A DNA stretch of 56,777 bases from positions 1 to 56,777 of the forward strand of contig JBBFMI010000001.1 of assembly GCA_037478635.1 (NCBI GenBank), given 5' to 3'. Below are positions 8,316 through 56,777 of this stretch, one piece after another. Source of the stretch: Candidatus Geothermincolales bacterium (GTDB lineage: Bacteria; Actinomycetota; Geothermincolia; Geothermincolales; RBG-13-55-18). Numbering within the stretch: position 1 is the first letter of the stretch; the number at the start of each line of letters is the position of its first letter. The translations under genes were made by a program, and so were the position numbers. The notes under the pieces are model-generated. The model did not search any database, had not been told where the DNA came from, and saw only the letters and a list, made by a program, of their open reading frames with translations.

Positions 8316-8463
8316 TGCGTTCGAGGATGCGATGAACCTTGCCGCCTGGGACATGAACCGTGAAATCGCGAAAATGCCCGAGCGGGAGGTTTTCACGAGG
8401 ATTATCGCTAACCTTTGAGGAAGCCACTACTCGAGGGCCTATGAAGATGAAACGGAGGAGGAG

Positions 8464-10161
8464 ATGAGGCAGAGCAGGCTATTCGCTCCCACGCTGAAGG
8501 AGTCGCCGGCGGACGCCGAGATCGCCAGCCACAGGCTGTTGGTGCGAGGCGGCTTTTTACGGCGGGTGGCCTCCGGCATATACGACTTCCTTCCCCTGGG
8601 CGTCCGGGTGGTCAGGAAGATCGAGAGGATAATCCGGGAGGAGATGAACCGGGAGGGGGCGCAGGAGGTCATCCTCCCCATCCTTCAGCCCCGGGAGCTC
8701 TGGGAGGAAAGCGGGCGCTGGTCGCGTTACGGCGAGGAGATGATGCGACTTAGGGACCGGGCGGGGAGGGATTTCGGCCTCGGGCCGACCCACGAGGAGG
8801 TCATCACCGCCCTGGTGCGAGACAACATCAGTTCCTACCGGGATCTGCCCCTCAATCTCTACCAGATAGGCGCCAAGTTCAGGGACGAGGTGCGCCCGCG
8901 CTTCGGCCTTCTCCGCGCCAGGGAGTTCATAATGAAGGACGCTTACAGCTTCGACCGGGATGAGGAGGGCATGCGGGAGAGCTACAGGTCCATGTACCGG
9001 GCCTATTCCCGCATCTTCGATCGCTGTGGGCTGAGGTGGATGGCGGTGGAGGCCGATACCGGGCTCATCGGGGGCGACGTCAGCCACGAGTTCATGGTCC
9101 TGGCGGCGGTAGGGGAAGACAGGATCGTTCACTGCGAGAACTGTGGATATGCCGCCAACATAAACCTGGCGGAATTTAAAAGGGAGACAGTGTCCGGACC
9201 CGAGCGACCACTAGAGAAAGTGAGTACCCCGGGACAGAGGACGGTGGAGGAAGTCAGCGGGTTTTTAGGGGTAAAGCCCCACCAGCTCATAAAATGCCTG
9301 ATGTACCTGGTGGAGGGAAAACCGGTTGCCGTGCTGGTGCCCGGGGACAGGGAGGCGGGAGAGGTAAAGCTGGAAAGGGCGTTCGGCACGTCGGAGTTCC
9401 GGTTGTTCAACCAGGCCGATTGGGATAATTTTCCACAGTACATCCAGGGTTTCGTCGGGCCGGTGGGGCTCGACGGGGCCGAGATCCTGGCGGACCTTTC
9501 CCTCGAGGGCGCTCGAGGGATGGTCTGCGGTTCGAACCAGGAGGACCATCACCTGGTGGGGGTAGAGGTCGGCAGGGATTTCCAACCGTCTCGTTTCCTC
9601 GACGTCGCCCTGGCCAGGGATGGCGACCCTTGCCCGAGGTGTGGAAAAGGGCTCAAGGTGGCAGCAGGCATCGAGGTGGGCCAGATATTCCAACTGGGCC
9701 TCAAGTACTCTCATTCCATGAAGTGCACTTACACCGATGAGAGGGGAGAGGAAAGGCCGGTTTACATGGGTTGCTACGGCATAGGGGTGACCCGCTTGAT
9801 GGCCGCCATAGTGGAGCAGCATCACGACGACAGGGGCATCATGTGGCCGTTGGAGGTGGCCCCCGCCCACGTACACATCTTGCCCCTCAATTACGAGAGG
9901 GAAGAGCGTAGGCGGGGAGCAGAGGAGATCTACCGAAGGCTCGTGGACGAGGGTTTCGAGGTGCTCCTGGACGACAGGGAGGAAAGCGCGGGGGTGAAGT
10001 TCGCCGACGCCGATCTTTTCGGCATCCCGTTCCGGTTGGTGCTGGGCCGGACCTACGAAGAATCCGGGAAAATCGAGATCCAGGCCAGGGCCACGGGGGA
10101 GAAGGTCATGGTGGACCAGGGGGAGGCAGTGGCCTGGGTGCGCGAGGCGGTATCCCGGTGA
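8464..10161 (+). CDS. proS: Proline--tRNA ligase (bacterial type with editing insertion)
   Basis: MRQSRLFAPTLKESPADAEIASHRLLVRGGF..., class II motifs; GGAGGAGG RBS before the ATG. Confidence 0.95.
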   Translation: MRQSRLFAPTLKESPADAEIASHRLLVRGGFLRRVASGIYDFLPLGVRVVRKIERIIREEMNREGAQEVILPILQPRELWEESGRWSRYGEEMMRLRDRAGRDFGLGPTHEEVITALVRDNISSYRDLPLNLYQIGAKFRDEVRPRFGLLRAREFIMKDAYSFDRDEEGMRESYRSMYRAYSRIFDRCGLRWMAVEADTGLIGGDVSHEFMVLAAVGEDRIVHCENCGYAANINLAEFKRETVSGPERPLEKVSTPGQRTVEEVSGFLGVKPHQLIKCLMYLVEGKPVAVLVPGDREAGEVKLERAFGTSEFRLFNQADWDNFPQYIQGFVGPVGLDGAEILADLSLEGARGMVCGSNQEDHHLVGVEVGRDFQPSRFLDVALARDGDPCPRCGKGLKVAAGIEVGQIFQLGLKYSHSMKCTYTDERGEERPVYMGCYGIGVTRLMAAIVEQHHDDRGIMWPLEVAPAHVHILPLNYEREERRRGAEEIYRRLVDEGFEVLLDDREESAGVKFADADLFGIPFRLVLGRTYEESGKIEIQARATGEKVMVDQGEAVAWVREAVSR

Positions 10162-11040: not shown

Positions 11041-11958
11041 ATGGAAGAAAAAGGAAGTCTCCGGGGCACCCTTTCCGGTTACCTCAATTACTTCGGCCTC
11101 AGGTTATTCTGTTTTCTCGCCGGCGTCATCGATCCGGAAAAAGCCCATAGGATAGCGTCAAGGTTAGGGGATGTCGCCTATTTCCTGTCGAGGAAAAAGA
11201 GGGCCGTGGTGAAGGAGAACCTACGGAGGGTGTGCCCCGGGGCGGGCGAGCGAGAACTGGATTCGATGACCAGGAAGAGCTTCCAGAACTATGCCCGCTA
11301 CTGGCTGGATTTCCTCCGGTGCTGGCACCTCACGTTCGAGGAGATATATCGGATGGTCGTTCCCCACGGAGTGGAATGGATAGACCGTTGCCTGGAGAAG
11401 GGCAAGGGGGTGATATTTGCCCTGCCCCATTTTGGGAGCTGGGATATGCTCGGTGGCTGGGTCGGCCTCCAGTACCCGAGCATGTGGGCGGTGGCCGAAC
11501 AGCTCAAGCCACGAGCGCTCTTCGAGTTCCATACCGAGCTCAGGAGGAGGATGGGGATCAAGATCATCCCCCTGGGGGAAAACACCGCCGAAAGGGTCAT
11601 AAAGGCTTGCATGGACAACGGCATAGTATGCCTGCTTTCCGACCGGGTGGTGGCCGGGAGTGGCGTGGAGGTGGAGTTCTTCGGGGAGAGAGTCCTCTTC
11701 CCGGTTGGCCCGGCACTGCTGGCGGTCAAGCTCGGCACCCCCATACTTCCCTGCCTCACCATCCGGGAGGGCGGGATGTACCACGGCTACGTGGGGCCAC
11801 CCTTGGAGGTGGAGGTCACCGGCGATACCCGGCGGGACGTCCAGGTGAACATGCAGAAGCTGGCGAGGGTCTTCGAGGATTTCATCAGGCGCGACCCCAC
11901 CCAGTGGCACATTTTCCAGCCCATCTTCGCTAAAACGAAGCGAGATGGTGGTCGATAG
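11041..11958 (+). CDS. Lysophospholipid/lipid A-type (HtrB/LpxL family) acyltransferase, PatA-like
   Basis: HFGSWD (HX4D acyltransferase motif) with family-typical length. ATG 11041 follows GGGAGGGAG. Position after the PI synthase gene matches the mycobacterial PIM acyltransferase. Confidence 0.75.
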   Translation: MEEKGSLRGTLSGYLNYFGLRLFCFLAGVIDPEKAHRIASRLGDVAYFLSRKKRAVVKENLRRVCPGAGERELDSMTRKSFQNYARYWLDFLRCWHLTFEEIYRMVVPHGVEWIDRCLEKGKGVIFALPHFGSWDMLGGWVGLQYPSMWAVAEQLKPRALFEFHTELRRRMGIKIIPLGENTAERVIKACMDNGIVCLLSDRVVAGSGVEVEFFGERVLFPVGPALLAVKLGTPILPCLTIREGGMYHGYVGPPLEVEVTGDTRRDVQVNMQKLARVFEDFIRRDPTQWHIFQPIFAKTKRDGGR

Positions 11959-12086
11959 TTGGGGCGAAGACGTTCATCCGAGCCTGGTGTCGACCGATAA
12001 GTGGGGACCGAAAGGGAATAAGGCGGGATTCCGTCGTGTGGAGTACGGGTTGGGTGGTTTTTCATAGGCCATCGGATAGACGGGGG

Positions 12087-13058
12087 GTGGCCGAGCTGGA
12101 GAAGTTCAGCAAACTCTGGAGGATCATCAAGCTCTTCACCTTGATCGAGGGCAACCCGGGCGTTAAGGCGAAGGACCTGGCAGAACGCTGCGAGGTCTCG
12201 ATTCGTACCATATACCGGGATATCCAGCTGATGAAGCTGGCCGGTATCCCCCTTTATTACGACGACGGTTACCGAATCGCGGAGGGCTTTTTCCTGCCCC
12301 CGCTGCAACTCGACCTCATGGAGACCCTTTCTCTCCTCATGGGCGCGGAACTTCTTGCCCGCCAGAAGGGAACCCCTTTCCAGAGGGGCATCGAGAGCGC
12401 GGTCCAGAAGATATACGCCTCCTTGCCCGCGGGATTGAGAGAGGAGGCCCGCCGGGAATCAGCGAGGTTCAGCCCCGCGTGGCAACCGGCGGTGGATTAC
12501 CAGCGACGCCTGTCCATCCTGGAGGTACTGGAAGAGGCCATCGAGGAAAAGAGGTCAGTGCGCATCGATTACCGGGCCATGTCCACCGGCGAGTGTACCG
12601 AGCGGCTGGTGGATCCCTACGGCTTCCTTTTCCGGAGCAACGGTTGGTATCTCGTGGCCCATTGCCATCTCAGGGGAGAGATAAAGATATTCAAGGTGGA
12701 CCGCATCCTCGATGCCGTCATCACGGGGGACAGGTTCGAGGTCCCGGAGGACTTCAACATCAGGGAGTACATGGGCGAGGCCTGGCAGTTGATGAGGGGA
12801 GAACGGGTGTACCAGGTGGCAATACAGTTCCCTCCCCACGTGGCCCCCTTTGTAACCGAGTGCATATGGCATTTCTCCCAGACCTGTGAGCCTCGGGAAG
12901 ACGGCAGCGTCATCCTGAGGTTCCGGGTAAGCGGGTTGGAGGAGCTGGCCAACTGGCTGTTGGGGTTTGGCGGTGACGCCCGGGTCCAGGAGCCACGGGA
13001 ACTGGAGGATCTCCTGGTGGAGAAGGCATCCCGGGTTCTCCAGGTATATAGAAGGTGA
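12087..13058 (+). CDS. HTH + WYL-domain transcriptional regulator (PafBC/BrxR-type architecture)
   Basis: N-terminal wHTH LWRIIKLFTLIEGNPGVKAKDLAERCEVSIRTIYRDIQLM; WYL core VRIDYRAMSTGECTERLVDPYGFLFRSNGWYLVAHCHLRGEIKIFKVDRI. Start uncertain (GTG 12087, or 12036 in the ORF track). Confidence 0.8.
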   Translation: MAELEKFSKLWRIIKLFTLIEGNPGVKAKDLAERCEVSIRTIYRDIQLMKLAGIPLYYDDGYRIAEGFFLPPLQLDLMETLSLLMGAELLARQKGTPFQRGIESAVQKIYASLPAGLREEARRESARFSPAWQPAVDYQRRLSILEVLEEAIEEKRSVRIDYRAMSTGECTERLVDPYGFLFRSNGWYLVAHCHLRGEIKIFKVDRILDAVITGDRFEVPEDFNIREYMGEAWQLMRGERVYQVAIQFPPHVAPFVTECIWHFSQTCEPREDGSVILRFRVSGLEELANWLLGFGGDARVQEPRELEDLLVEKASRVLQVYRR

Positions 13059-13482: not shown

Positions 13483-15048
13483 TCAGCTACCGGAAGACGG
13501 GGAATACATGGCCCGCAGTTCCTTCTTGAGGATCTTGCCGGTGGCGGTGCGGGGCAGGGCCTCGGCGAAGACCACCTTCTTGGGGATCTTGTATTTTGCC
13601 AGCTTTCCCTGGCAGAAGTTGATCACTTCCTCCTCGGTGATCTCGACTCCCGGCTTGGGGACCACGACTGCCAGGCCCACCTCGCCCCACTTCTCGTCGG
13701 GTATTCCGATGACCCCCACGTCGGCCACCTTCTCGAAGCCCATGATCACGTCCTCCACCTCCGCCGGGTACACGTTCTCGCCACCGCTGATGTACATGTC
13801 CTTCTTCCTGTCCACCAGGTAGAGGTAGCCCTCCTCGTCGATGTAACCCATGTCCCCGGTGTGCAACCAGCCATCGGTGATGGATTCGGCGGTAGCCTGC
13901 GGAAGCCTCCAGTATTCCCGGATCACGTTGGGCCCCCTGACCCATACCTCCCCCATCTCGCCCCGGGGAAGCTCGTTGCCCTCCCCGTCGACCACCTTTA
14001 TGTCGGTGTGGAACACCGGCTTTCCACAGGAGCCTATCTTGCGGAGGGCATCCTCCCTTCGCAGGGCGGTGATGGCGGTGGCCGTCTCGGTCATGCCGTA
14101 TCCTTGGTTGAAGGTGACGCCCTTTTTGAGCCATGTCTCGATCAGGGGCCGTGGACAGGGGGCTCCACCGGCGATGAAGAAGCGCACGCTGGAATAGTCG
14201 GTGGTCTCGAACTCCGGCACCTGGGTCATGAGCAGGAACATGACCGGGATGCCGAACATGAAGGTGATCCTCTCCTTCTCGATGAGCTGCAGGGTCTCCG
14301 AGGGATTGAAGAACCGCTGTATGACCACTCTTGATCCCACGTACATGGCGGGGAAGGCCGATACCGCCAGTCCCCCGATGTGGAACAGGGGAGCGCAGGC
14401 GATGCTCGAGTCGCTGCTGTCGAAGGCGTACATGTGGATCGAGTTGATGGCGTTCCACTGGGTATTGCCGTGAAGGATGCAGGCGCCCTTGGGTTTTCCA
14501 GTGGTCCCCGACGTGTACATGAGGATGTGGATGTCGTCCAGGGTGACCGGGGCATCCGGGACCGGCTCGTCGTCGGGCATGTCCGTGATCACGTCTTCGT
14601 AAAGGGGGTCGGCGGGATTTCCGCCCTCCTTTTCCGCGATGAAATTGGCGATGCTGGGGACCTTACCGCGAAGGGCGTCCGCGGATACGGTGAACTCCGG
14701 GCTGTAGATGAGGGCGATGGGCTCCGAGTCGTTGAGGATGTACTCCAGTTCGGGGGGAGCCAGGCGGAAGTTCAGGGGCACGATAATGCCGCCCAGCTTG
14801 TTAAGGGCGAAGAGGATCTCGAGGAAGCGATGGCAGTTGGCCATGAGGACCGAAACCCGTGTCCCCTTCCTCACCCCCATCCGTTGCAGGGCGTGGGCGG
14901 CCTTGTTCACCCTTCGGTTGAACTCGCCCTTGGTGAGCTCCAGGTCGCCGCACTTTATGTACGGTTCGTCGGGATAACGGTGGGCCCACCGGGTTGGCCA
15001 TTCGCCCACGTTCAGGTTTTTCCATTCACCGGCTATCATTCGTGGCAC
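13483..15048 (-). CDS. AMP-dependent acyl-CoA synthetase/ligase (FadD-like)
   Basis: YTSGTTGKPKGA (A3 motif), GYGMTE, TGDMGYIDEEGYLYLVDRKKD, C-terminal PRTATGKILK. Confidence 0.9.
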   Translation of the reverse strand: MPRMIAGEWKNLNVGEWPTRWAHRYPDEPYIKCGDLELTKGEFNRRVNKAAHALQRMGVRKGTRVSVLMANCHRFLEILFALNKLGGIIVPLNFRLAPPELEYILNDSEPIALIYSPEFTVSADALRGKVPSIANFIAEKEGGNPADPLYEDVITDMPDDEPVPDAPVTLDDIHILMYTSGTTGKPKGACILHGNTQWNAINSIHMYAFDSSDSSIACAPLFHIGGLAVSAFPAMYVGSRVVIQRFFNPSETLQLIEKERITFMFGIPVMFLLMTQVPEFETTDYSSVRFFIAGGAPCPRPLIETWLKKGVTFNQGYGMTETATAITALRREDALRKIGSCGKPVFHTDIKVVDGEGNELPRGEMGEVWVRGPNVIREYWRLPQATAESITDGWLHTGDMGYIDEEGYLYLVDRKKDMYISGGENVYPAEVEDVIMGFEKVADVGVIGIPDEKWGEVGLAVVVPKPGVEITEEEVINFCQGKLAKYKIPKKVVFAEALPRTATGKILKKELRAMYSPSSGS

Positions 15049-43390: not shown

Positions 43391-43905
43391 TCACTCCTTG
43401 ATCGGGGCGGGGGTGAACGGGGCTTTCCGCCCGTGATACGTCTGGTAGATGGGATTAGGGAGGGGCACTGATATCCCGGTCTGCAAGGTCAACGGTCGGT
43501 TTGGTCCATTTGTACGAGTCCTTTTCGGACGAATGGTCCTACAGGAATATGGCCATGACGTCGATAATCTATAATAGAAAAAGATCGAGAATTGATCGGG
43601 AATCGGTTGGCTGGCTCTGCCTTGTGCGAGGGCCGTCGAAGGTGTCCTTGAGCCAACACCACTTTTAAGGGAGCCGATTTCCGCGGATCGAAGTAACGCC
43701 CGGGAGGGGACTACGGAGGATCCAGCGGTAGGCGCCCACCTGCAGAGGACGCAGGTTCATGGATACGGCGGCAACGGCAAGGCGGGGCCTCGTTTTAAAT
43801 TCACTTATCTATTGACCTTTTTCTCTCCGACGTTCCCCAGATATCATCCGGTCTTGACCCTGGTTTATCCTTTAAAGGAGACGAGTGCGCTGATCGTTCG
43901 GGAAG

Positions 43906-50297: not shown

Positions 50298-50444
50298 TCG
50301 AGAAAAACGGCCGGCCATAGTCGTTTTGCCTTTGGCCTTGTCAAAAGGATTTTTAAACATGACGGACTTTAATTTCCATCCGATGGAGTCGATGTTGAAG
50401 GAGTAAGGTGATCGCCCGTCAAAGTCACTAAGAGCCGGGCAGAT

Positions 50445-50450
50445 TAGAAT
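50445..50450 (+). promoter_or_regulatory. Candidate -10 element (ATTAGAAT context) ahead of the V4R/hydrogenase-like operon
   Basis: TAGAAT at 50445-50450 in the AT-richer 192-nt gap after mltG. The octamer ATTAGAAT is the same as at the putative pimA promoter. No good -35. Confidence 0.3.
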
Positions 50451-50489
50451 CGAAGAGTCCACTGGCAATGAACCCAGGAGAAAGAAGAC

Positions 50490-50978
50490 ATGGTCGGTAG
50501 CATGAACGGCGCATCAGGCAGGGGGATGTGGCTTGCGGAGACGCTGGCCGTCTTTGGGCTATCCGCTGAGATGGCGATAGGCCCGTCGACGCCCAGGGTC
50601 ATCTACTTCTCGGCCAAAGACCTAGGGGTTAGAGAGGGCAAGAGGTTCGATCACACGGATGACCTCGAACAGGCGCTACGCTGGATCCTGAGAACTGATG
50701 AAGGTCACTGGTCTGTCGTTTTCTGGAAGGATGTGGACGAGGAGGATTTCTGGGAGACGGATGGGAAATTCGCCTTCATCCGCCTGTTGATGAGAGATTG
50801 TCTCGTCAGGGACGCATGCTTGGCGACGGGTATCAGGGTTGGCGGGACCGTCTGCGAAGCCCTTCATGGCTACTGGGCAGGGCTTCTGGAGAGCATTTTC
50901 TCCCGGAGGGTGGACATCTTGACCGAGCACGCCGGTTTTGGGAGCTGCCTTTTGTGCTTGAGGACCACCTCCGGTTGA
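50490..50978 (+). CDS. Hypothetical protein with C-terminal V4R-like (4-vinyl reductase type) small-molecule-binding domain
   Basis: C-terminal VCEALHGYWAGLLESIFSRRVDILTEHAGFGSCLLCL resembles the V4R pattern C-x2-L-x-G-x2-AG ... V-x-V-x-E ... C-x-F. AGGAGAAAG RBS. Pattern resemblance only. Confidence 0.45.
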   Translation: MVGSMNGASGRGMWLAETLAVFGLSAEMAIGPSTPRVIYFSAKDLGVREGKRFDHTDDLEQALRWILRTDEGHWSVVFWKDVDEEDFWETDGKFAFIRLLMRDCLVRDACLATGIRVGGTVCEALHGYWAGLLESIFSRRVDILTEHAGFGSCLLCLRTTSG

Positions 50979-51005
50979 GTCGCCAAGAGGAAAAGGTGAA
51001 GAGTT

Positions 51006-51902
51006 ATGGATAGGTTGGCAATTATACAGCTCGGCTCCTGTGGAGGCTGCCAGCTCTCGCTACTGGATCTCGGGAAAGACTTCCTCGACATCATGGAAAT
51101 GTATTCCATTGAGCATTTTCCGATGATAAGGGAGGGAGAGGAATTCCCGGAGTCTGACCTCGTACTGGTGGAGGGCACGGTGAGACATGCCCGACACTTA
51201 GAGTCACTGAGAAAGGTTAGGGGCAGGGCGAGGACCCTAGTTGCCCTGGGGACATGCGCCGTGTTCGGGGGGGTCCAGGGCCTGGCGAACGTGAGCGGTG
51301 GTGGTAGGTGGGAGGAATCCATTTCCAGGGCTCGTGCGGGCGAGAGCGTCCCGCTATTCACCAGGAGGGTCCTACCACTCGACGCCTATGTGCCGGTGGA
51401 CGTGAGGTTACCCGGTTGTCCGGTGCCCGCCGGGCTTTTGGCATCCTTCCTCAAGGGATCGGCGGAAGGGGCGAGGCCTACCAGGGAATCTGCCACCGTG
51501 TGCGCGGAGTGCCCACTTAGAGGAGGTGGTGAGAAAGGAGGCCCGTTCCGCTTCACCGAGAGGAAAGCCGAATCGGGGATATGTTTTCTGGAGCAGGGTT
51601 TTCTCTGTATGGGGCCACTTACCCGGGACGGTTGCGGCGCCCTTTGCCCCGGATCTTCGGGATACCCCTGTCGGGGATGTCGCGGGCCTTCTGATGGGGC
51701 CTTGATCTTTCAGGAATTGGATCCCATGGTCGAGTCCATCAGGAGGCTTTCCCGCACTGCGAGCAATAAGGATGAACAGGTGGCGGGTTATTTCATGGAC
51801 AGGGCTCACGCGTTTTTCATGTTCTGCGCGGCAGAACCGACATTCCGAGACAGGAGGGTCGGGGGGACTTCTGGGATCGTGTACAGGTTGGGAGGTGAAT
51901 GA
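51006..51902 (+). CDS. [NiFe]-hydrogenase small subunit homologue, group-3 (MvhG/FrhG/HydD)-like, three predicted Fe-S clusters
   Basis: Proximal-cluster motifs GSCGGCQLS, GTCAVFGG, PGCPVP. Distal/medial region VCAECP ... ICFLEQGFLCMGPLTRDGCGALCPGSSGYPCRGCRGP. Confidence 0.8.
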   Translation: MDRLAIIQLGSCGGCQLSLLDLGKDFLDIMEMYSIEHFPMIREGEEFPESDLVLVEGTVRHARHLESLRKVRGRARTLVALGTCAVFGGVQGLANVSGGGRWEESISRARAGESVPLFTRRVLPLDAYVPVDVRLPGCPVPAGLLASFLKGSAEGARPTRESATVCAECPLRGGGEKGGPFRFTERKAESGICFLEQGFLCMGPLTRDGCGALCPGSSGYPCRGCRGPSDGALIFQELDPMVESIRRLSRTASNKDEQVAGYFMDRAHAFFMFCAAEPTFRDRRVGGTSGIVYRLGGE

Positions 51903-51963
51903 GCCCCTCGTTACACCGTGGCCGTGGTAGGCCACTGGGAGGCAGAAGAGGCGGTTGAGAGAT

Positions 51964-53271
51964 ATGGCTACATATGGTCTGGCCAGGGTTTTTGGTGAGG
52001 CCCACCTGAGGGTCGAGGTCGAGGAGGGAGGAAAACCCTCGGTTGGCTTGGCCTGCGAAGGTTACAGGGGTTACGGGATCATCGGCGCAGGATGCCACGG
52101 GGAATTCCTCCCCGACCTCTTATCCAGGCGCTGCGGGGTCGATTCCCTGTATCACAGGATGGCAGCCTGCCTGGCCATGGAAAAGGCCCTGGGAGTGGAA
52201 GTACCGGAAAGCGCCGGGAGGGTTAGGGAGTTGTTATTGGCCTGCCAGCTGTTCCGTCGGCATTCGCTGACCATGACCCTGCACGTACTTCCAGATCTCC
52301 TGTTCCCGGCCTCCGACCCAGGGGTTAGAAACCTGGTGGGACTCTTCCGGGTGGACAGGGACGTGGTGGGGAGGATGATGGCCCTTAACTCTTGGGGGGA
52401 GAGCGTCTTGAGGAATATCTCTGCCCGGGCCGTCCATCCGCTGACCCCGGTGCCGGGCGGACTCACCTTTATTCCGGGTGAGGAGGCCATCGATTGGTTG
52501 AGGAAATCGATCCCCGAGATGATGGGCCTTGCCAGGGAGACCTCGCGCTTGGTCAGGATGTTGTTAAGGCGTAATGAGGACCTGGTGGGAGAACTGGGGA
52601 TACAAGATGGTTCGCAGATGGTGGCGGAAACACCGCCGTTCGGAGGTTCGTGGGTTGGCGTGAATATAGCGGAGTTCACCGGCGAGAGGCGAAAGATCGG
52701 GGCCCTGGATTTGCTGGAGAGGGCTGAAAAGGTCAGCCTGTCCGACACCCTACTGGAGGGTTACCGCGTCTCCGGAGACGGTTACGGGATCCTTACCGGG
52801 CCCCTTTCCAGGATAAACGTGATGGGTTCTTACGGCACCGAGATGGCTGACTCGGAGCTGGAGGAGATCAAGAAGATATGGGGTTTCCCTTTCCGGGGAA
52901 TACTTCTATCCCATGCACTCCGCCTGGCAGAGATGATCATGGCTCTGGAGAAGATAACCGGGCTGATTTCCGAGGCCGATTCCTGGGGGAGGGGGGAGTC
53001 GAGGAACGAAGTCCCCAGGGGAAGTGGCGAAGGGGTCGTAGCCCTTGAGGGAGCGGAAGGCTTGCACCTTCTGAAGGTAAAAGTGGAAGAAGGCTACGTT
53101 TCCGGTACCGAATATGTCGCGCCGTTACAATGGAACCTCGTTGGTATGCTGGATATGCTGGAACGGGAAGGGCAGAAGGTGGGAGAAGACACGGGTGAGG
53201 CTCGATGGCTGAGCAGGTTAGAAGTGGCGGTGAGGGCCTATGCCCCCTGTTTCTTCTGCGCGGCTGGCTGA
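51964..53271 (+). CDS. [NiFe]-hydrogenase large-subunit homologue with degenerate active-site motifs (pseudo-hydrogenase or sensor candidate)
   Basis: Collinear with large-subunit motifs, but RIEGH is RVFGE, RxCGxCxxxH is RRCGVDSLYH, EAPRGxLxH is EVPRGSGEG, PTxWN is APLQWN, and DPCxxCxxH is APCFFCAAG followed by the stop. ATG 51964 (the ORF track lists TTG 51955). Confidence 0.72.
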   Translation: MATYGLARVFGEAHLRVEVEEGGKPSVGLACEGYRGYGIIGAGCHGEFLPDLLSRRCGVDSLYHRMAACLAMEKALGVEVPESAGRVRELLLACQLFRRHSLTMTLHVLPDLLFPASDPGVRNLVGLFRVDRDVVGRMMALNSWGESVLRNISARAVHPLTPVPGGLTFIPGEEAIDWLRKSIPEMMGLARETSRLVRMLLRRNEDLVGELGIQDGSQMVAETPPFGGSWVGVNIAEFTGERRKIGALDLLERAEKVSLSDTLLEGYRVSGDGYGILTGPLSRINVMGSYGTEMADSELEEIKKIWGFPFRGILLSHALRLAEMIMALEKITGLISEADSWGRGESRNEVPRGSGEGVVALEGAEGLHLLKVKVEEGYVSGTEYVAPLQWNLVGMLDMLEREGQKVGEDTGEARWLSRLEVAVRAYAPCFFCAAG

Positions 53272-53297
53272 AATGACGTGGAGGAGGCCTGGCAGTG

Positions 53298-53570
53298 ATG
53301 TCTGAAGCAAGGGTGGAGCTGGATCTTGCAAGATGCGTGGCTTGCCTGGAATGCTTGGAGGTCTGCCCGCGATCTTCCGGCATTGACCACCCCGTGTTCG
53401 ATAGGTCCGAGGAAGGTCTGCCCAAGGTAGCGTATCCGGGCAGTTGCATTTCCTGTCACGATTGTGCCGTGAGATGCAGGGCGATGGCCATACGGATCAA
53501 CGGGAAGTGTTTTCCCCCACCCCGAATGGTCGATCCGGTTCTTTCGAGCAGGATTCAGACCATATACTGA
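53298..53570 (+). CDS. 2x[4Fe-4S] ferredoxin-domain protein
   Basis: CVACLECLEVCP and CISCHDCAVRC (CxxCxxCxxxC twice); GGAGGAGG RBS. ATG 53298 (the ORF track lists GTG 53295). Confidence 0.85.
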   Translation: MSEARVELDLARCVACLECLEVCPRSSGIDHPVFDRSEEGLPKVAYPGSCISCHDCAVRCRAMAIRINGKCFPPPRMVDPVLSSRIQTIY

Positions 53571-53773
53571 TGACCGACGGTTTGAGCATGGATGTGAGTG
53601 ATGTCACCGGGAAGAGTCTACAGCCTCAAAACCTGGTAGCCAGGCTAAACAATTGGGCGGCTTTGACGATACAGTAATAAGCGTTGACCGTGTTATACAC
53701 GAGTAAACTTATGGTAAAAATGGCGTTTGACGAGATCGAGTAAGCATCGGGAATGGGCGGGAGGTGGTAGGTT

Positions 53774-54127
53774 TTGCCGGATCTGAGGAGAGTCCTGGAG
53801 GAACTTGTGGCCACCGGGGCGGTTAAGGCCTGCCTGGTGGTGGGCAGGGATGGTTTCATCATAGAGGCAGTGGGAAGCGATCCCTCCCAACTGGAAGCGG
53901 TGGGCGCTATCGCACCCAGTTCCCTGGGTGCGGCGGAGGTCATCGGACTCGAACTGGCCCAAGGTCCTATGAGCCAGGCCTTGTTCGAGTTCGAGAAGGG
54001 TGCCATCATGATGAGCGCAGTGGGTCCCGATGCCATCCTGGTGAGCATCCTTCCCTCGGGCGCTAACCTCGGGAAGGCCAGGTACGATATCCGGAAGTTC
54101 CTGCCTGCTATCGAGAAAGCCCTGTGA
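53774..54127 (+). CDS. Roadblock/LC7 (MglB-like) domain protein, paralogue 1
   Basis: About 117 aa; AVKACLVVGRDGFIIEAVGSD ... ALFEFEKGAIMMSAVGPDAILVSIL, a typical Robl/LC7 pattern. TTG start after GGAGGTGG. Confidence 0.8.
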   Translation: MPDLRRVLEELVATGAVKACLVVGRDGFIIEAVGSDPSQLEAVGAIAPSSLGAAEVIGLELAQGPMSQALFEFEKGAIMMSAVGPDAILVSILPSGANLGKARYDIRKFLPAIEKAL

Positions 54128-54164
54128 ACGTTGATCTTGTCGATGGTCCAGAGGTGGTGAAAGG

Positions 54165-54539
54165 GTGGCAACCGAGAGGCTGGAAAGGATCAACACGGTC
54201 CTTCGAGAGTTAAGGGCAAACCTTCCCGAGGTGGAAGCGGTGGTGTTGATAAGCAGCGATGCCATGGCCCTGGCTTCGGACATCTCTGACGATTCCGATG
54301 AGGAGATGATAAGTGCCCTGTCGAGTTCCGTGCTGAACATGGGGGAGAGGGCCGCCAGGGACCTCAGGCGAGGGGTGTTGGAGCAGGTGTTCATCAAGGG
54401 TGACCAGGGATCCCTTCTCCTCATGCATTGCGGTCCCCAAGCCCTGCTGTCGTTGATGGTCAAGCCAGAGGCCAAGCTGGGCGTGGTGCTCATGGAGGCT
54501 AAGAGAACGGTAGAGGAACTCTCCAGGCTCTTTGATTAG
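54165..54539 (+). CDS. Roadblock/LC7 (MglB-like) domain protein, paralogue 2
   Basis: LRELRANLPEVEAVVLISSDAMALAS ... QVFIKGDQGSLLLMHCGPQALLSLMV; GTG start after GAGGTGGTG. Confidence 0.8.
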   Translation: MATERLERINTVLRELRANLPEVEAVVLISSDAMALASDISDDSDEEMISALSSSVLNMGERAARDLRRGVLEQVFIKGDQGSLLLMHCGPQALLSLMVKPEAKLGVVLMEAKRTVEELSRLFD

Positions 54540-54590
54540 CCCCGACTCGGTATCCCATGGGATCTGGGAGGAAAAAAGGAGGTAAGATCC

Positions 54591-54989
54591 TTGTCGGAGT
54601 CGCGGGAAGAAAGGCTCAGGAAAGCCCTGCAGGAGCTTATATCGAAGTCAGCCGAGGTCGATGCAGCCGCTGTCGTCAGCATGGACGGATTGGTGATGGC
54701 CTCGGTCCTACCCAACACATTGGAGGAGGATAGGTTAGGGGCCATGTCCGCGGCTTTGCTCAGTCTGGGCGAGAGGACCTCCGAGGAGCTGGGTAGAGGA
54801 GAGCTGGCCCAGGTGTTCGTAGAGGGAAAGGAGGGTTACGTGTTCCTCATGGCCGCAGGACCCGATGCAGTCCTGACGGCCCTGGTCAGAAAGGGCAGCA
54901 AACTGGGATTGGTGTTATACGATGTCAAAGGGGCTGCAAAAAAGATAGCGGAGATAATCGCCTCGGAATTCAAGATTGAGTACGAATAA
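54591..54989 (+). CDS. Roadblock/LC7 (MglB-like) domain protein, paralogue 3
   Basis: LQELISKSAEVDAAAVVSMDGLVMAS ... QVFVEGKEGYVFLMAAGPDAVLTALV; TTG start after AAGGAGGT. Confidence 0.8.
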   Translation: MSESREERLRKALQELISKSAEVDAAAVVSMDGLVMASVLPNTLEEDRLGAMSAALLSLGERTSEELGRGELAQVFVEGKEGYVFLMAAGPDAVLTALVRKGSKLGLVLYDVKGAAKKIAEIIASEFKIEYE

Positions 54990-55093
54990 AACGACATATT
55001 TTATATGAGAATAAATTAGAGGGGTGGATCGACCATCGTCCGGAAGTTCCGCCGTCCTCTTTGGTTTAAAATAATAACAAGAGATGATGAGAG

Positions 55094-56777
55094 ATGGCTC
55101 TTAAGGGCAGTTTGAAGGACTTCAGCCTCCCCGATCTATTCCAGTTGCTGAACTTCAGCAAGAAAAACGGCACGCTTAACCTCGTGAGGGGGAATTCCAG
55201 GGGATATATCTGTTTCCGCAACGGGGAGGTCTTTTTCGCCACCACCAACTGGAAACGGCAATCCCTGGGCATGAAGCTCATGGCCGCGGGACTCATCACC
55301 AAGGAACAACTGGAAGAAGCGCTCGGGTTGCAGCGTACGGAGGCAAAGGGGCAGAGGCTGGGGCAGATCCTGGTGCGTCTGGGATACATAACCCAGGAGC
55401 AACTCGAGGTCTTCGTGGAGGAGCAGATACAGGATGCCGTTTTTGAGATGCTACGCTGGACCGATGGGGAATTCGATTTCCAGCCTGGGGTGGTGTTCCC
55501 GGAGGAGGATATTGGCCTCTCCATCAGCACCGAGGAGCTGATAATGGAAGGCTCCCGGCGTCTGGACGAGTGGAACCGCATCGAGAAGAAGATACCCCAC
55601 CTTGACGTGGTCTTCAGGATGAAGTCAATGCAGGGCAGGGAGGCTGCACAGATTAGCCTGACTCCAGAGGAATGGATGGTGCTCACCTACGTGGATGGCG
55701 AGAGGACGGTCCGCCAGATAGTGGAACTCACGGGGATGAGCACCCTCCAGACCTGCAAGATCCTCTACGGCCTGATCAGCTCCGGTTTGCTTGAAAACGT
55801 TACCCCTCAACCGGAGGAAATAGAAACGGAGAAGAGGTTGGAGGAGCTCGCCCAGGAGCTTGAGCGAGCGGAGCAGGAAGTGACCACCGAGGTTAAGGAA
55901 ACGGAGGTCACGGGAGAGAAGAGAGTCTATCCGGTTGAGGAAGAGATGGGCTTGACCGAGAGGGTGGAAAGCCTGCTCCGGGAGCTGGAAAGGCCGAAGG
56001 AGGAGCTCAGGGAGATCGGGGATACCGAGACCGGTCAGCATGAGGAGACCGTAAAAGAAGCGGAAGACCTTTTGAGGCAACTCGAGGAAGAACGAGAACG
56101 GGAGGTTTATCAGCAGCAGGTCACGGAAGGGTTTGCCGGGGAGATCTCAGAGGAAGAAACCCGATCTTCAACGAGAGCTGAGACGACGTTATCGGGGGAG
56201 ATCTCCCAAGAAGAAGAAGTGGTGGTGGGAGCGGAAGAAACCGAAGAGATCCTGGTGGTGGAAGAGGAGGAGGCCGGGGTCTCCGTGGAGGATGCTTCTG
56301 CCGGGGCGGGAGAGCTGGTCGAGGAGCCGGGGATATCAACCCTTGCCGGTAAGGCCGAGGAAGAACCTTCCGCGGGCATGGCGGTTGAGAGCGATAGACC
56401 AAAAGACCTCCTGAGAGAGAGCCTGGAAGAGGAGAGACGAAGGCTGGAGGAGCTGAAACGACAGACCCTAGCCGATGCACTGGAGGCATCTACAGAGATA
56501 GAGGTGGTAAAAGGCGGCGGAAGGTTGAATGTCCCCGAAGGGCTGATAGATGCTGACGAGACCGTGGAACTCAAACCGTCCCGTCACATCGGTACAGGCG
56601 AGAGAAAGCCCGTACAGGAAGGGGACTTGTTGCACGAAAGCGAGCAAGCCAGAAAGGCGAAGATGTCTTATCTGGCGAAGAAATACGGCATTGATTTTGA
56701 TGAATTGGAGCAAAGGAGAGAGGAAGAACCGAAAGATGCCATAGATACACCTCTTGAAGCAAAGGAGAAAGAGGGAG
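55094..56777 (+). CDS. PATAN/DUF4388-domain protein with helical MshEN/T2SSE_N-like insert and long acidic coiled-coil tail; 3' end outside the window
   Basis: Not in the supplied ORF track because it has no stop. I translated it codon by codon from ATG 55094 (two in-frame TGA codons just upstream) to nt 56777 and found no stop (more than 561 aa). N-terminus [30 protein letters not shown] is the DUF4388/PATAN signature. It continues ...[11 protein letters not shown] and a wHTH-like [30 protein letters not shown]. Confidence 0.8.

Follow-up and report, generated by a model that had tools for sequence, protein, structure and literature searches.

We analysed a window of 56,777 nt, meaning the whole stretch of DNA presented here, from an uncultured, heat-loving actinobacterium (Candidatus Geothermincolales bacterium, contig JBBFMI010000001.1 of assembly GCA_037478635.1), and divided the genes at its end into two units. 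Unit A comprises g1, which encodes a protein with a predicted V4R fold, the genes for the small and large subunits of a [NiFe]-hydrogenase-like pair, and a ferredoxin gene (fd); unit B comprises three Roadblock genes (rob1, rob2 and rob3), a PATAN gene and a small GTPase gene, the last of which lies outside the window, which stops within the PATAN gene, and is known from relatives. The original prediction for this stretch had taken these genes as one candidate system, in which a pseudo-hydrogenase sensing redox state or H2 is coupled to a small-GTPase-type signalling module. We tentatively favour a different reading, namely that A and B are independent neighbours and that the hydrogenase-like unit has been re-purposed.

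The large subunit of unit A has a remodelled active site. In the window protein, for which the ATG at 51964 is an alternative start, the RxEGH motif reads RVFGEA and the relay Glu is lost (RxxGxA in the clade); the L1 motif RxCGxCxxxH reads RRCGVDSLYH, with Asp in place of the second Cys, which is the bridging ligand in the D. gigas structure; EAPRG reads EGAEG, with Glu at the position of the pendant Arg (EAPEG or EGAEG in the clade); and the L2 motif DPCxxCxxH reads APCFFCAAG directly before the stop codon, with CxxC kept, the canopy Asp changed to Ala and no C-terminal extension. The Asp-variant ("D-variant") large subunit described in the original prediction is thus real, and none of the canonical L1, L2, Glu and Arg motifs matches it. 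The missing extension had been offered as a sign of a sensor; canonical relatives (P0014-P0016) also end without one, and because the trait is common to them it is not a sensor hallmark.

These changes extended well beyond the window protein. The L2 Asp is replaced by Ala or Ser across the clade, the terminal His is Gly in the sub-clade of the window, and the pendant Arg position holds E, L, P or G in the 22 clade loci, with Q added when the sister clade is counted. Asp at the second L1 Cys (RxCGxDS) was found in 18 of the 22 loci, which make up the Solincola branch and include the window, while the Geothermincola-type loci L017, L018, L019 and L021 retain all four Cys. Among 13 aligned clade large subunits, 72 columns were invariant, the new Asp included. 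The "degenerate" large subunit of the original prediction is therefore non-canonical but not decaying, its unusual residues being kept across the clade, and since unit A is intact and conserved, it has probably been re-purposed rather than left to decay. L116 (1-3071) and L117 (8678-12668) encode a family of sister large subunits, likewise Mvh-like and non-canonical, that keep the four Cys; the corresponding motifs read RIRGRA, RICGSCGSFH, DSPQG and CPCIPCATH in P0155, and RIQGRA, RICGTCGPFH, DSPRG and IPCVPCGTH in P0164. Both members of this sister clade lack the relay Glu and the L2 Asp, and P0155 lacks the Arg as well.

Profile comparisons placed the large subunit among Mvh-type enzymes. 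The clade profile matched MvhA (5ODC_F) over its full length (positions 1-437, E 1.2e-75), the best relatives belonged to groups 3c, 3b and 3a, and the VhuA-like score of 134 bits fell far under the equivalog cutoff. About a dozen close relatives (37-97% identity) were found in 5.8 billion clusters, after which identity fell to 21-26%, at ordinary Mvh-type enzymes; an exhaustive profile search of 1.84 billion representatives likewise returned about 4-5 clade members at 440-674 bits, with canonical hydrogenases at no more than 323 bits. An exact sequence look-up of the window large subunit returned no record, and the clade was undescribed in the literature on pseudo-hydrogenases and on Geothermincolia hydrogenases. 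A hydrogenase variant that has lost the Arg, Glu and Asp, and in which one bridging Cys has become Asp, thus appears to be undescribed.

The electron-transfer parts of unit A were conserved. The small subunit aligned to MvhG (5ODC_E, E 4e-46) with each Fe-S Cys motif matched, and all 12 Cys of the three cluster motifs (proximal, medial and distal) were kept in 22 of 22 small subunits of relatives. The mvh operon has the order mvhD-G-A-B, and g1-small-large-fd parallels it, with the V4R protein at the position of MvhD and the ferredoxin at that of MvhB. In L117, the ferredoxin reading frame lies at ~11400-11650 and was missed by the source annotation.

Two readings of unit A by itself can be weighed on this evidence. 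That it is a functionless, decaying Mvh relic (a pseudo-operon) is highly improbable: the canonical catalytic residues are absent and g1 of L011 is frameshifted or extended, but the reading frames are intact in more than 20 species, the invariant columns of the large subunit include the new Asp, the Fe-S Cys are all conserved, and the unit has been kept across lineages down to 55% alaS identity. Because of this conservation pattern, the relic reading is effectively refuted. It is also unlikely, though far less so, that unit A still works as a hydrogenase in energy metabolism, coupled to ferredoxin, with unusual ligands and unrelated to unit B; the Asp and Glu substitutions would then offer protons another path. 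All four Cys persist in the Geothermincola and sister branches, the Fe-S wire and the ferredoxin partner are intact, unit A evolves at ordinary enzyme rates, near those of mltG and aroE, and the lineage has been described as a Wood-Ljungdahl anaerobe with hydrogenases, Hdr and Rnf (PMC12917137). Yet Glu, Arg and Asp were lost together across the clade, the residue replacing Arg varies (E, L, P, G or Q), and the locus has no MvhD or Hdr partner but a V4R protein there instead. The pendant Arg has been called "strictly conserved" in [NiFe]-hydrogenases, and its exchange for Lys alone cuts turnover ~40-80-fold in E. coli enzymes, a loss of ~98% of activity (PMC10430524).

The first protein of unit A, g1, matched no family in Pfam or NCBIfam at E <= 0.01, PF02830 included, and a sequence search against the PDB gave no match. 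Its AlphaFold2 model (predicted local distance difference test score, pLDDT, 72) had as Foldseek top matches the sensor domains of PoxR, MopR and DmpR (E 1.5e-5 to 3e-4), and also matched TRAPP Bet3/TPC6 and MJ1460 (probability 1.00, template modelling score ~0.5-0.6). On the basis of this model, g1 is predicted to adopt the V4R/Bet3 fold. The V4R-like domain proposed earlier for g1 was thus borne out by the fold and by a motif layout similar to that of V4R proteins, but not by a sequence match in Pfam or NCBIfam. Invariant residues were C104, C110, C122, C153 and H126, and the Cys-rich C-terminal half is a candidate metal site. A 76%-identical homologue carries the JGI label "predicted hydrocarbon binding protein". 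In relatives, typically 0-28 nt separate g1 from the small-subunit gene. In L011 (~8439-9060, CAYPZH010000025.1), the g1 frame is disrupted or extended: its C-terminal third is out of register and it runs 224 nt into the small-subunit gene, which might reflect faulty assembly or a local pseudogene.

In unit B, rob1 and rob3 were 81-96% and 89-96% identical to the window proteins across the class, respectively, and rob3 is the paralogue kept beside PATAN in outgroups L029, L099 and L117. The MglB equivalog model NF052242 scored 29.5, where the cutoff is 200. Within the PATAN domain (55103-55576), an alpha-clip insertion holds a tandem MshEN-type motif for cyclic di-GMP (c-di-GMP) at 55265-55426, and Glu-rich low-complexity sequence follows; the putative MshE-related motif (NF053729) scored 53.6 bits over residues 58-111, where the cutoff is 38. 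Full-length PATAN proteins of relatives measured 1028-1470 aa, and neither a Pfam domain in their C-terminal parts nor a Response_reg match was found.

Directly after PATAN, relatives (L002, L026, L027 and L117) encode a GTPase of 177-180 aa (177-181 aa over all class loci that reach it), followed by aroE, pilB, pilT and pilC. The MglA-like GTPase that the original prediction had proposed to look for downstream is therefore present in relatives, the window ending before it. Its G1 motif reads GPFSAGKTT and its G3 motif FGTPGQ, with the MglA-type Thr that one account gives as a hallmark of MglA (PMC3000849). The gene lies at 17423-17956 in L002, with equivalents in L008-L025, and at 16276-16818 in L117. 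At G4 the class has GATR or AATR (GARS in L017), the sister lineage has LTRSD, and NKxD is absent; homologues outside the class mostly have ANKQD or ANKV, and two have ANRQD or LNRAA. Despite the lost guanine-specificity motif, the GTPase is 76-98% identical within the class, and from its sequence the Geothermincolia GTPase may differ in nucleotide specificity. All homologues at 81% identity or more were in the class, and the next, at no more than 62%, were in Chloroflexota and Coriobacteriia.

Unit B was also found where unit A is lacking. In a metagenome-assembled genome (MAG) of Coriobacteriia, a rob3-like Roadblock gene (E 1e-48), PATAN (E 3e-70), the GTPase gene and a gene for a 184-aa protein precede pilB, pilT, pilC, a pilin gene and PilD, and a high-GC actinobacterial contig has the order mltG-aroE-Robl-PATAN-GTPase-pilB-pilT-pilC; neither carries hydrogenase genes. 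In the metagenome loci whose flank was long enough, PATAN always stood immediately upstream of the GTPase gene (48 of 48), and small- or large-subunit matches were found in none of 80 metagenome GTPase loci. Because the Roadblock-PATAN-GTPase set adjoins pilB without hydrogenase genes elsewhere, unit B has no need of unit A. Neighbourhoods of PATAN with MglA/MglB are already known (PMC4316618); a PATAN domain binds PilB1 as well as PilC's N-terminal domain and suffices to switch pilus-driven phototaxis, and the PATAN alpha-clip insertion resembles the N-terminus of PilB (10.1101/2021.06.11.447907). By analogy, unit B is most likely a type IV pilus polarity/activity switch, a known kind of system, and the adjacent type IV pilus operon, which lay out of view of the original prediction, would be the natural target of its GTPase module.

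We then examined the distribution of the arrangement using one genome per species. The unit A clade was found in 20 MAGs, all Actinomycetota; several bear the name Ca. Solincola or Ca. Geothermincola, and these two belong to the class Ca. Geothermincolia. Every locus had the order alaS-ruvX-mltG-g1-small-large-fd-rob1-rob2-rob3-PATAN as far as its contig reached, and longer contigs continued with the GTPase gene, aroE, pilB and pilT, in L027 onward to pilC, pilM and pilO. The sister clade occupied the matching slot (hisS-aspS-DUF948-alaS-ruvX-mltG-g1-like-small-large-fd-Robl-Robl-PATAN-GTPase-aroE-pilB-pilT-pilC) with two Roadblock genes rather than three, at 55% identity to the window for alaS and 28-29% for the large subunit. 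The claim that hydrogenase-like genes neighbour Roadblock and PATAN genes in other genomes thus held in every related genome with adequate contig reach, and the adjacency of A and B is old and universal in genomes bearing A. Because the block lies in a fixed alaS-ruvX-mltG...aroE housekeeping backbone, however, this adjacency is effectively one ancestral event and is uninformative about function. A mobile island was ruled out by the core backbone, the absence of an integrase and the identical slot in all genomes. Mean pairwise identity was 0.90 for rob1, 0.93 for rob3, 0.88 for the N-terminal part of PATAN and 0.86 for the GTPase in unit B, and 0.58 for g1, 0.55 for the small subunit, 0.51 for the large subunit and 0.43 for fd in unit A, with mltG at 0.59. 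The proteins of unit B are thus much better conserved than those of unit A, a difference that counts against coupling.

Spacing and upstream elements pointed to a break between the units. The fd-rob1 gap was 174-580 nt in all 18 class loci, compared with typically 0-82 nt inside each unit. In 11 of the 18 relatives, rob1 is preceded at a distance of 127-146 nt by a sigma-70-type element, TTGGAG/TTGGCA-N17-TATAAT, which a promoter scanner scored 11/12 in L002 and L017. Upstream of g1, at 62-180 nt in 14 of the 22 loci (Solincola branch), lay a 30-nt element, CATGTTTAAT(A/G)GGAAATGGCCGAAATATCAC, which may be a promoter or operator; this g1-upstream element, CATGTTTAATAGGAAATGGCCGAAATATCAC, differs from the rob1 promoter motif, and the window holds only a split version of it (CATGACGGACTTTAAT at 50358). 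A 16-mer, TGACGATACAGTAATA (53664-53679), is common to the fd-rob1 gap of the window and its nearest longer relative, L007. The original prediction had treated the genes on either side of 53571-53773 as probably one operon while allowing for two; with a promoter-like element before rob1 in relatives, the evidence leans to independent transcription.

Examples of the rob1 element are L002 12033-12188, L010 7681-7856 and L017 11647-11802, with 8 further loci, and those of the g1 element are L010 4261, L022 8396 and L023 8406, with 11 further loci. The rob1 leader begins TATAAT(C/T)(A/G)AGCAACA and ends with a pyrimidine tract, CTTTTCTCC, before a GGAGG ribosome-binding site; the tract often has its complement upstream, and the leader could form a switch between anti-Shine-Dalgarno (anti-SD) and SD pairing. 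RNAalifold on the rob1 and g1 leaders found no covariation, possible anti-SD/SD pairing only and no structure for the g1 element, while Rfam searches of this region, of the entire window and of three relatives returned no known riboswitch or leader in either intergenic region. A consensus promoter/terminator scan of the window left its intergenic regions empty, with counts below shuffle expectation.

In our favoured reading, A and B would be two units in a shared inherited chromosomal slot, possibly with three transcripts. Unit B would act as a polarity and activity switch for the aroE-pilB-pilT-...-pilC-pilM-pilO pili: its Roadblock proteins, as platforms of the GTPase-activating protein (GAP) or guanine nucleotide exchange factor (GEF) type like MglB and MglC, would set the nucleotide state of the GTPase, the PATAN domain would engage the PilB/PilC motor as cyanobacterial PATAN regulators do, and the MshEN-type insertion would bring in c-di-GMP. 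Unit A would be an offshoot of an Mvh-type (group 3c) operon with its full Fe-S wire kept and its metal pocket changed. It would serve as a redox module of low turnover, linked to ferredoxin and re-purposed from H2 cycling, in which the V4R subunit may bind a small ligand or a partner, and a promoter and an output of its own would belong to it.

It is also a real possibility that unit A senses redox state or H2 and passes this on to unit B, and hence to type IV pili, so as to give energy taxis or H2 taxis by twitching. In this case, the V4R protein would dock on the Fe-S/Ni-Fe module and act according to its redox or ligand state; V4R and the three Roadblock proteins would form a TRAPP/Ragulator-like platform setting the GTPase state; and the GTPase and c-di-GMP would control PATAN binding to PilB/PilC. 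Several observations speak for such coupling and weigh against independent neighbours. In every genome that has A, B lies beside it in the same orientation, down to the sister clade with its 28-29% identity, and unit A was never seen apart from unit B in three divergent sub-lineages (the Asp type, four-Cys Geothermincola and P0155/P0164). The fd-Roadblock gap is ~77-100 nt in the sister clade, with 77 nt in L116. Scans detected no terminator-like hairpin bearing a T run in the window and no intrinsic terminator past fd in the window or the scanned relatives, so that read-through from unit A is possible; moreover, both strict promoter motifs are absent from the window and from its closest relative, L007. 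The loss of the proton-transfer residues with the Fe-S wire and all its ligands kept is what would be expected of a sensor, and unit A has no output domain of its own. The canonical relative P0014 is a bare small-large pair with no V4R or ferredoxin partner, and because of this the V4R protein is not simply inherited hydrogenase baggage. V4R proteins, whose fold g1 is predicted to share, are also encoded downstream of the GTPase gene, at a distance of 0.9 kb or less, in 24 of 37 PATAN-GTPase loci with enough flank (Chloroflexota-type contigs), and because these come from other bacteria, a V4R-GTPase link exists independently. Finally, L099 has its B-only triad placed between aroE and pilB, while A and B here lie between mltG and aroE, a difference of slot that fits their acquisition as one block.

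Other observations speak against the sensor. All instances derive from the one ancestral arrangement, effectively n = 1; in relatives, rob1 is preceded by a strong, conserved predicted promoter and g1 by a different element; and B occurs without A in other lineages. An hhalign comparison of g1 with the GTPase-linked V4R protein and its family was not significant (probability 4.5%). A mirror-tree comparison of units A and B gave residual correlations of 0.4-0.56 with 16 taxa, which moved to -0.59 to 0.35 with 11 taxa and control genes added, and this correlated-rate test was discarded as unstable. An H2 sensor should also retain its H2-cleaving site, but the Arg, the Glu and, in the window, one bridging Cys are gone. 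As to the system claimed in the original prediction, its parts, their neighbourhood in other genomes and the non-normal large subunit stood, whereas its joint transcription did not fare as well; signalling from A to B is plausible, and it is neither established nor refuted. A more specific proposal seems rather unlikely to us: an H2/redox-taxis device, in which a non-catalytic Mvh-derived module would report H2 or ferredoxin redox state through V4R, and a V4R-Roadblock platform would act through the GTPase and c-di-GMP on PATAN and PilB/PilC. If true, this device would steer twitching towards the energy source in a Wood-Ljungdahl anaerobe, and V4R, Roadblock and GTPase together would be a prokaryotic counterpart of the eukaryotic TRAPP fold set.

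The GTPase-linked V4R protein of the other bacteria is bona fide (Pfam 27.7 bits) and sits in a conserved operon of the order PATAN-GTPase-alpha/beta hydrolase-V4R-LbH-dehydrogenase-like-REC/GGDEF. The encoded proteins measure ~270 aa (PATAN), ~210 aa (V4R), ~425 aa (LbH/hexapeptide) and ~366 aa (dehydrogenase-like); examples are L031 (9104-15846), L049, L056, L074, L094, L111, L112 and others within the metagenome loci L033-L112. Neither this link of V4R with PATAN and GTPase, nor a combination of hydrogenase with Roadblock, PATAN or V4R, was described in the literature searched.

The findings bear on several questions. The pendant Arg and relay Glu are deemed near-universal, and here they have been dropped across a bacterial class and its sister lineage with the Fe-S wire kept, a natural experiment on what becomes of a Ni-Fe pocket: a sensor, new chemistry or a new metal site. 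With the Roadblock-PATAN-GTPase set immediately preceding pilB in three actinobacterial lineages, pilus control in the style of MglA now reaches Gram-positive-type bacteria, and the recurrent V4R partner of PATAN-GTPase offers a lead to the prokaryotic origins of TRAPP-like GTPase platforms. Should A indeed signal to the GTPase, a small-GTPase/type IV pilus system would for the first time have a hydrogenase-type input, and A would be a candidate mechanism of H2 or energy taxis, for which we know of no bacterial sensor. Only proven coupling of A and B would constitute a new kind of system.

The features of the locus are listed in Table 1. As originally described, eight consecutive reading frames lie on the + strand (50490-56777), and Pfam and NCBIfam bore out the parts list for the small subunit, the ferredoxin, the three Roadblock proteins and the PATAN protein along with its MshEN-type motif. 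The gaps from g1 to PATAN are, in order, 27, 52, 23, 203, 37, 51 and 104 nt. The AT-richer boundary noted past mltG was recovered at a GC content of 0.47, as against 0.59 for the window, and the other two of the three longest spacers are likewise AT-richer (fd-rob1 0.49, rob3-PATAN 0.39).

Table 1 Features of the hydrogenase-like and Roadblock/PATAN units in the window.
Feature	Coordinates	Strand	Remarks
mltG-g1 intergenic	50298..50489	.	192 nt, GC 0.47
g1, predicted V4R/Bet3-fold protein, 162 aa	50490..50978	+	first gene of hydrogenase-like unit
MvhG-like [NiFe]-hydrogenase small subunit, 298 aa	51006..51902	+	Pfam Oxidored_q6 88 bits; VhuG-like 157 bits
MvhA-derived large subunit, 438 aa	51955..53271	+	NiFeSe_Hases 32 bits (weak); VhuA-like 134 bits
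2x[4Fe-4S] ferredoxin, 91 aa	53295..53570	+	Fer4 families; CxxCxxCxxxCP + CxxCxxCxxxC
Ferredoxin-Roadblock intergenic	53571..53773	.	203 nt, GC 0.49
Roadblock/LC7 protein 1 (rob1), 117 aa, TTG start	53774..54127	+	Robl_LC7 50 bits
Roadblock/LC7 protein 2 (rob2), 124 aa	54165..54539	+	Robl_LC7 56.8 bits
Roadblock/LC7 protein 3 (rob3), 132 aa	54591..54989	+	Robl_LC7 67 bits
PATAN (DUF4388) protein, cut by window end	55094..56777	+	PF14332 131.5 bits, residues 4-161

Outside this locus, the window consists of core housekeeping genes, with rpsB through proS, ruvB, queA, tgt, secDF, relA, hisS, aspS and rarA. An ordinary 6S (SsrS) RNA gene lies between aspS and rarA at 43611-43792 (+) (68.5 bits, E 2e-11) and is likewise present in relatives L022 and L023. 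A WYL/WCX/HTH (PafC-like) regulator is encoded at 12036-13058 (+), with an acyl-CoA-synthetase-type gene at 13483-15048 as its opposite-strand neighbour; both are unrelated to the main locus.

Compared with known hydrogenases, unit A is closest in layout to Mvh (group 3c, Methanothermococcus thermolithotrophicus, 5ODC), with which it shares full-length homology, the three Fe-S motifs of the small subunit, the x-G-A-ferredoxin order, and a locus without signal peptide or membrane subunit. Unlike Mvh, it has lost the relay Glu, the pendant Arg and the DPC Asp, with Asp as the second L1 Cys in the window; it has a V4R-fold protein in place of MvhD and a 91-aa two-cluster ferredoxin in place of the polyferredoxin; and there are no Hdr genes near it. 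With the group 2b regulatory hydrogenases HoxBC/HupUV, which work with the HoxJ/HupT kinase, it shares a soluble large/small pair that lacks the extension and stands beside signalling genes. Those enzymes hold an intact Ni-Fe site, whereas that of unit A is altered, and unit A is 3c-like rather than 2b-like, with no histidine kinase or response regulator. A group 2b H2 sensor was therefore ruled out by the wrong group, the changed site and the absence of the kinase from the loci of all relatives.

Unit B resembles MglA/MglB(/MglC) of Myxococcus, Thermus and Bdellovibrio in its Roadblock proteins, in a GTPase with the TPGQ Thr and in its link to pilus genes; it differs in having three Roadblock paralogues, a COG2229/ATP_bind_1-type GTPase paired with PATAN, GATR/AATR in place of NKxD at G4, and no RomR/RomX. 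It shares with the PATAN regulators (cyanobacterial PatA-type PixG/PixE/LsiR; Makarova et al. 2006) a PATAN domain with a PilB-N-related (MshEN/GspE_N) alpha-clip and a tie to the pilus motor and MglA/MglB-type genes, but its PATAN protein has no receiver domain, is at least 1000 aa long with an acidic low-complexity middle and a conserved C-terminus, and is partnered by a GTPase rather than a chemosensory system. Streptomyces conservons (CvnA-D) and mycobacterial Mfp likewise combine Roadblock proteins with a COG2229-type GTPase in Actinomycetota; here, there is no CvnA histidine kinase and no DUF742 (CvnC), PATAN is present, and identity with a conservon was ruled out, CvnA and CvnC being absent from all loci. 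Taken as one gene block, A and B recall TRAPP/Ragulator (eukaryotic, Asgard) in bringing together V4R/Bet3-like, Roadblock and small GTPase folds, an analogy of composition only, with the V4R gene here operonic with hydrogenase-like genes.

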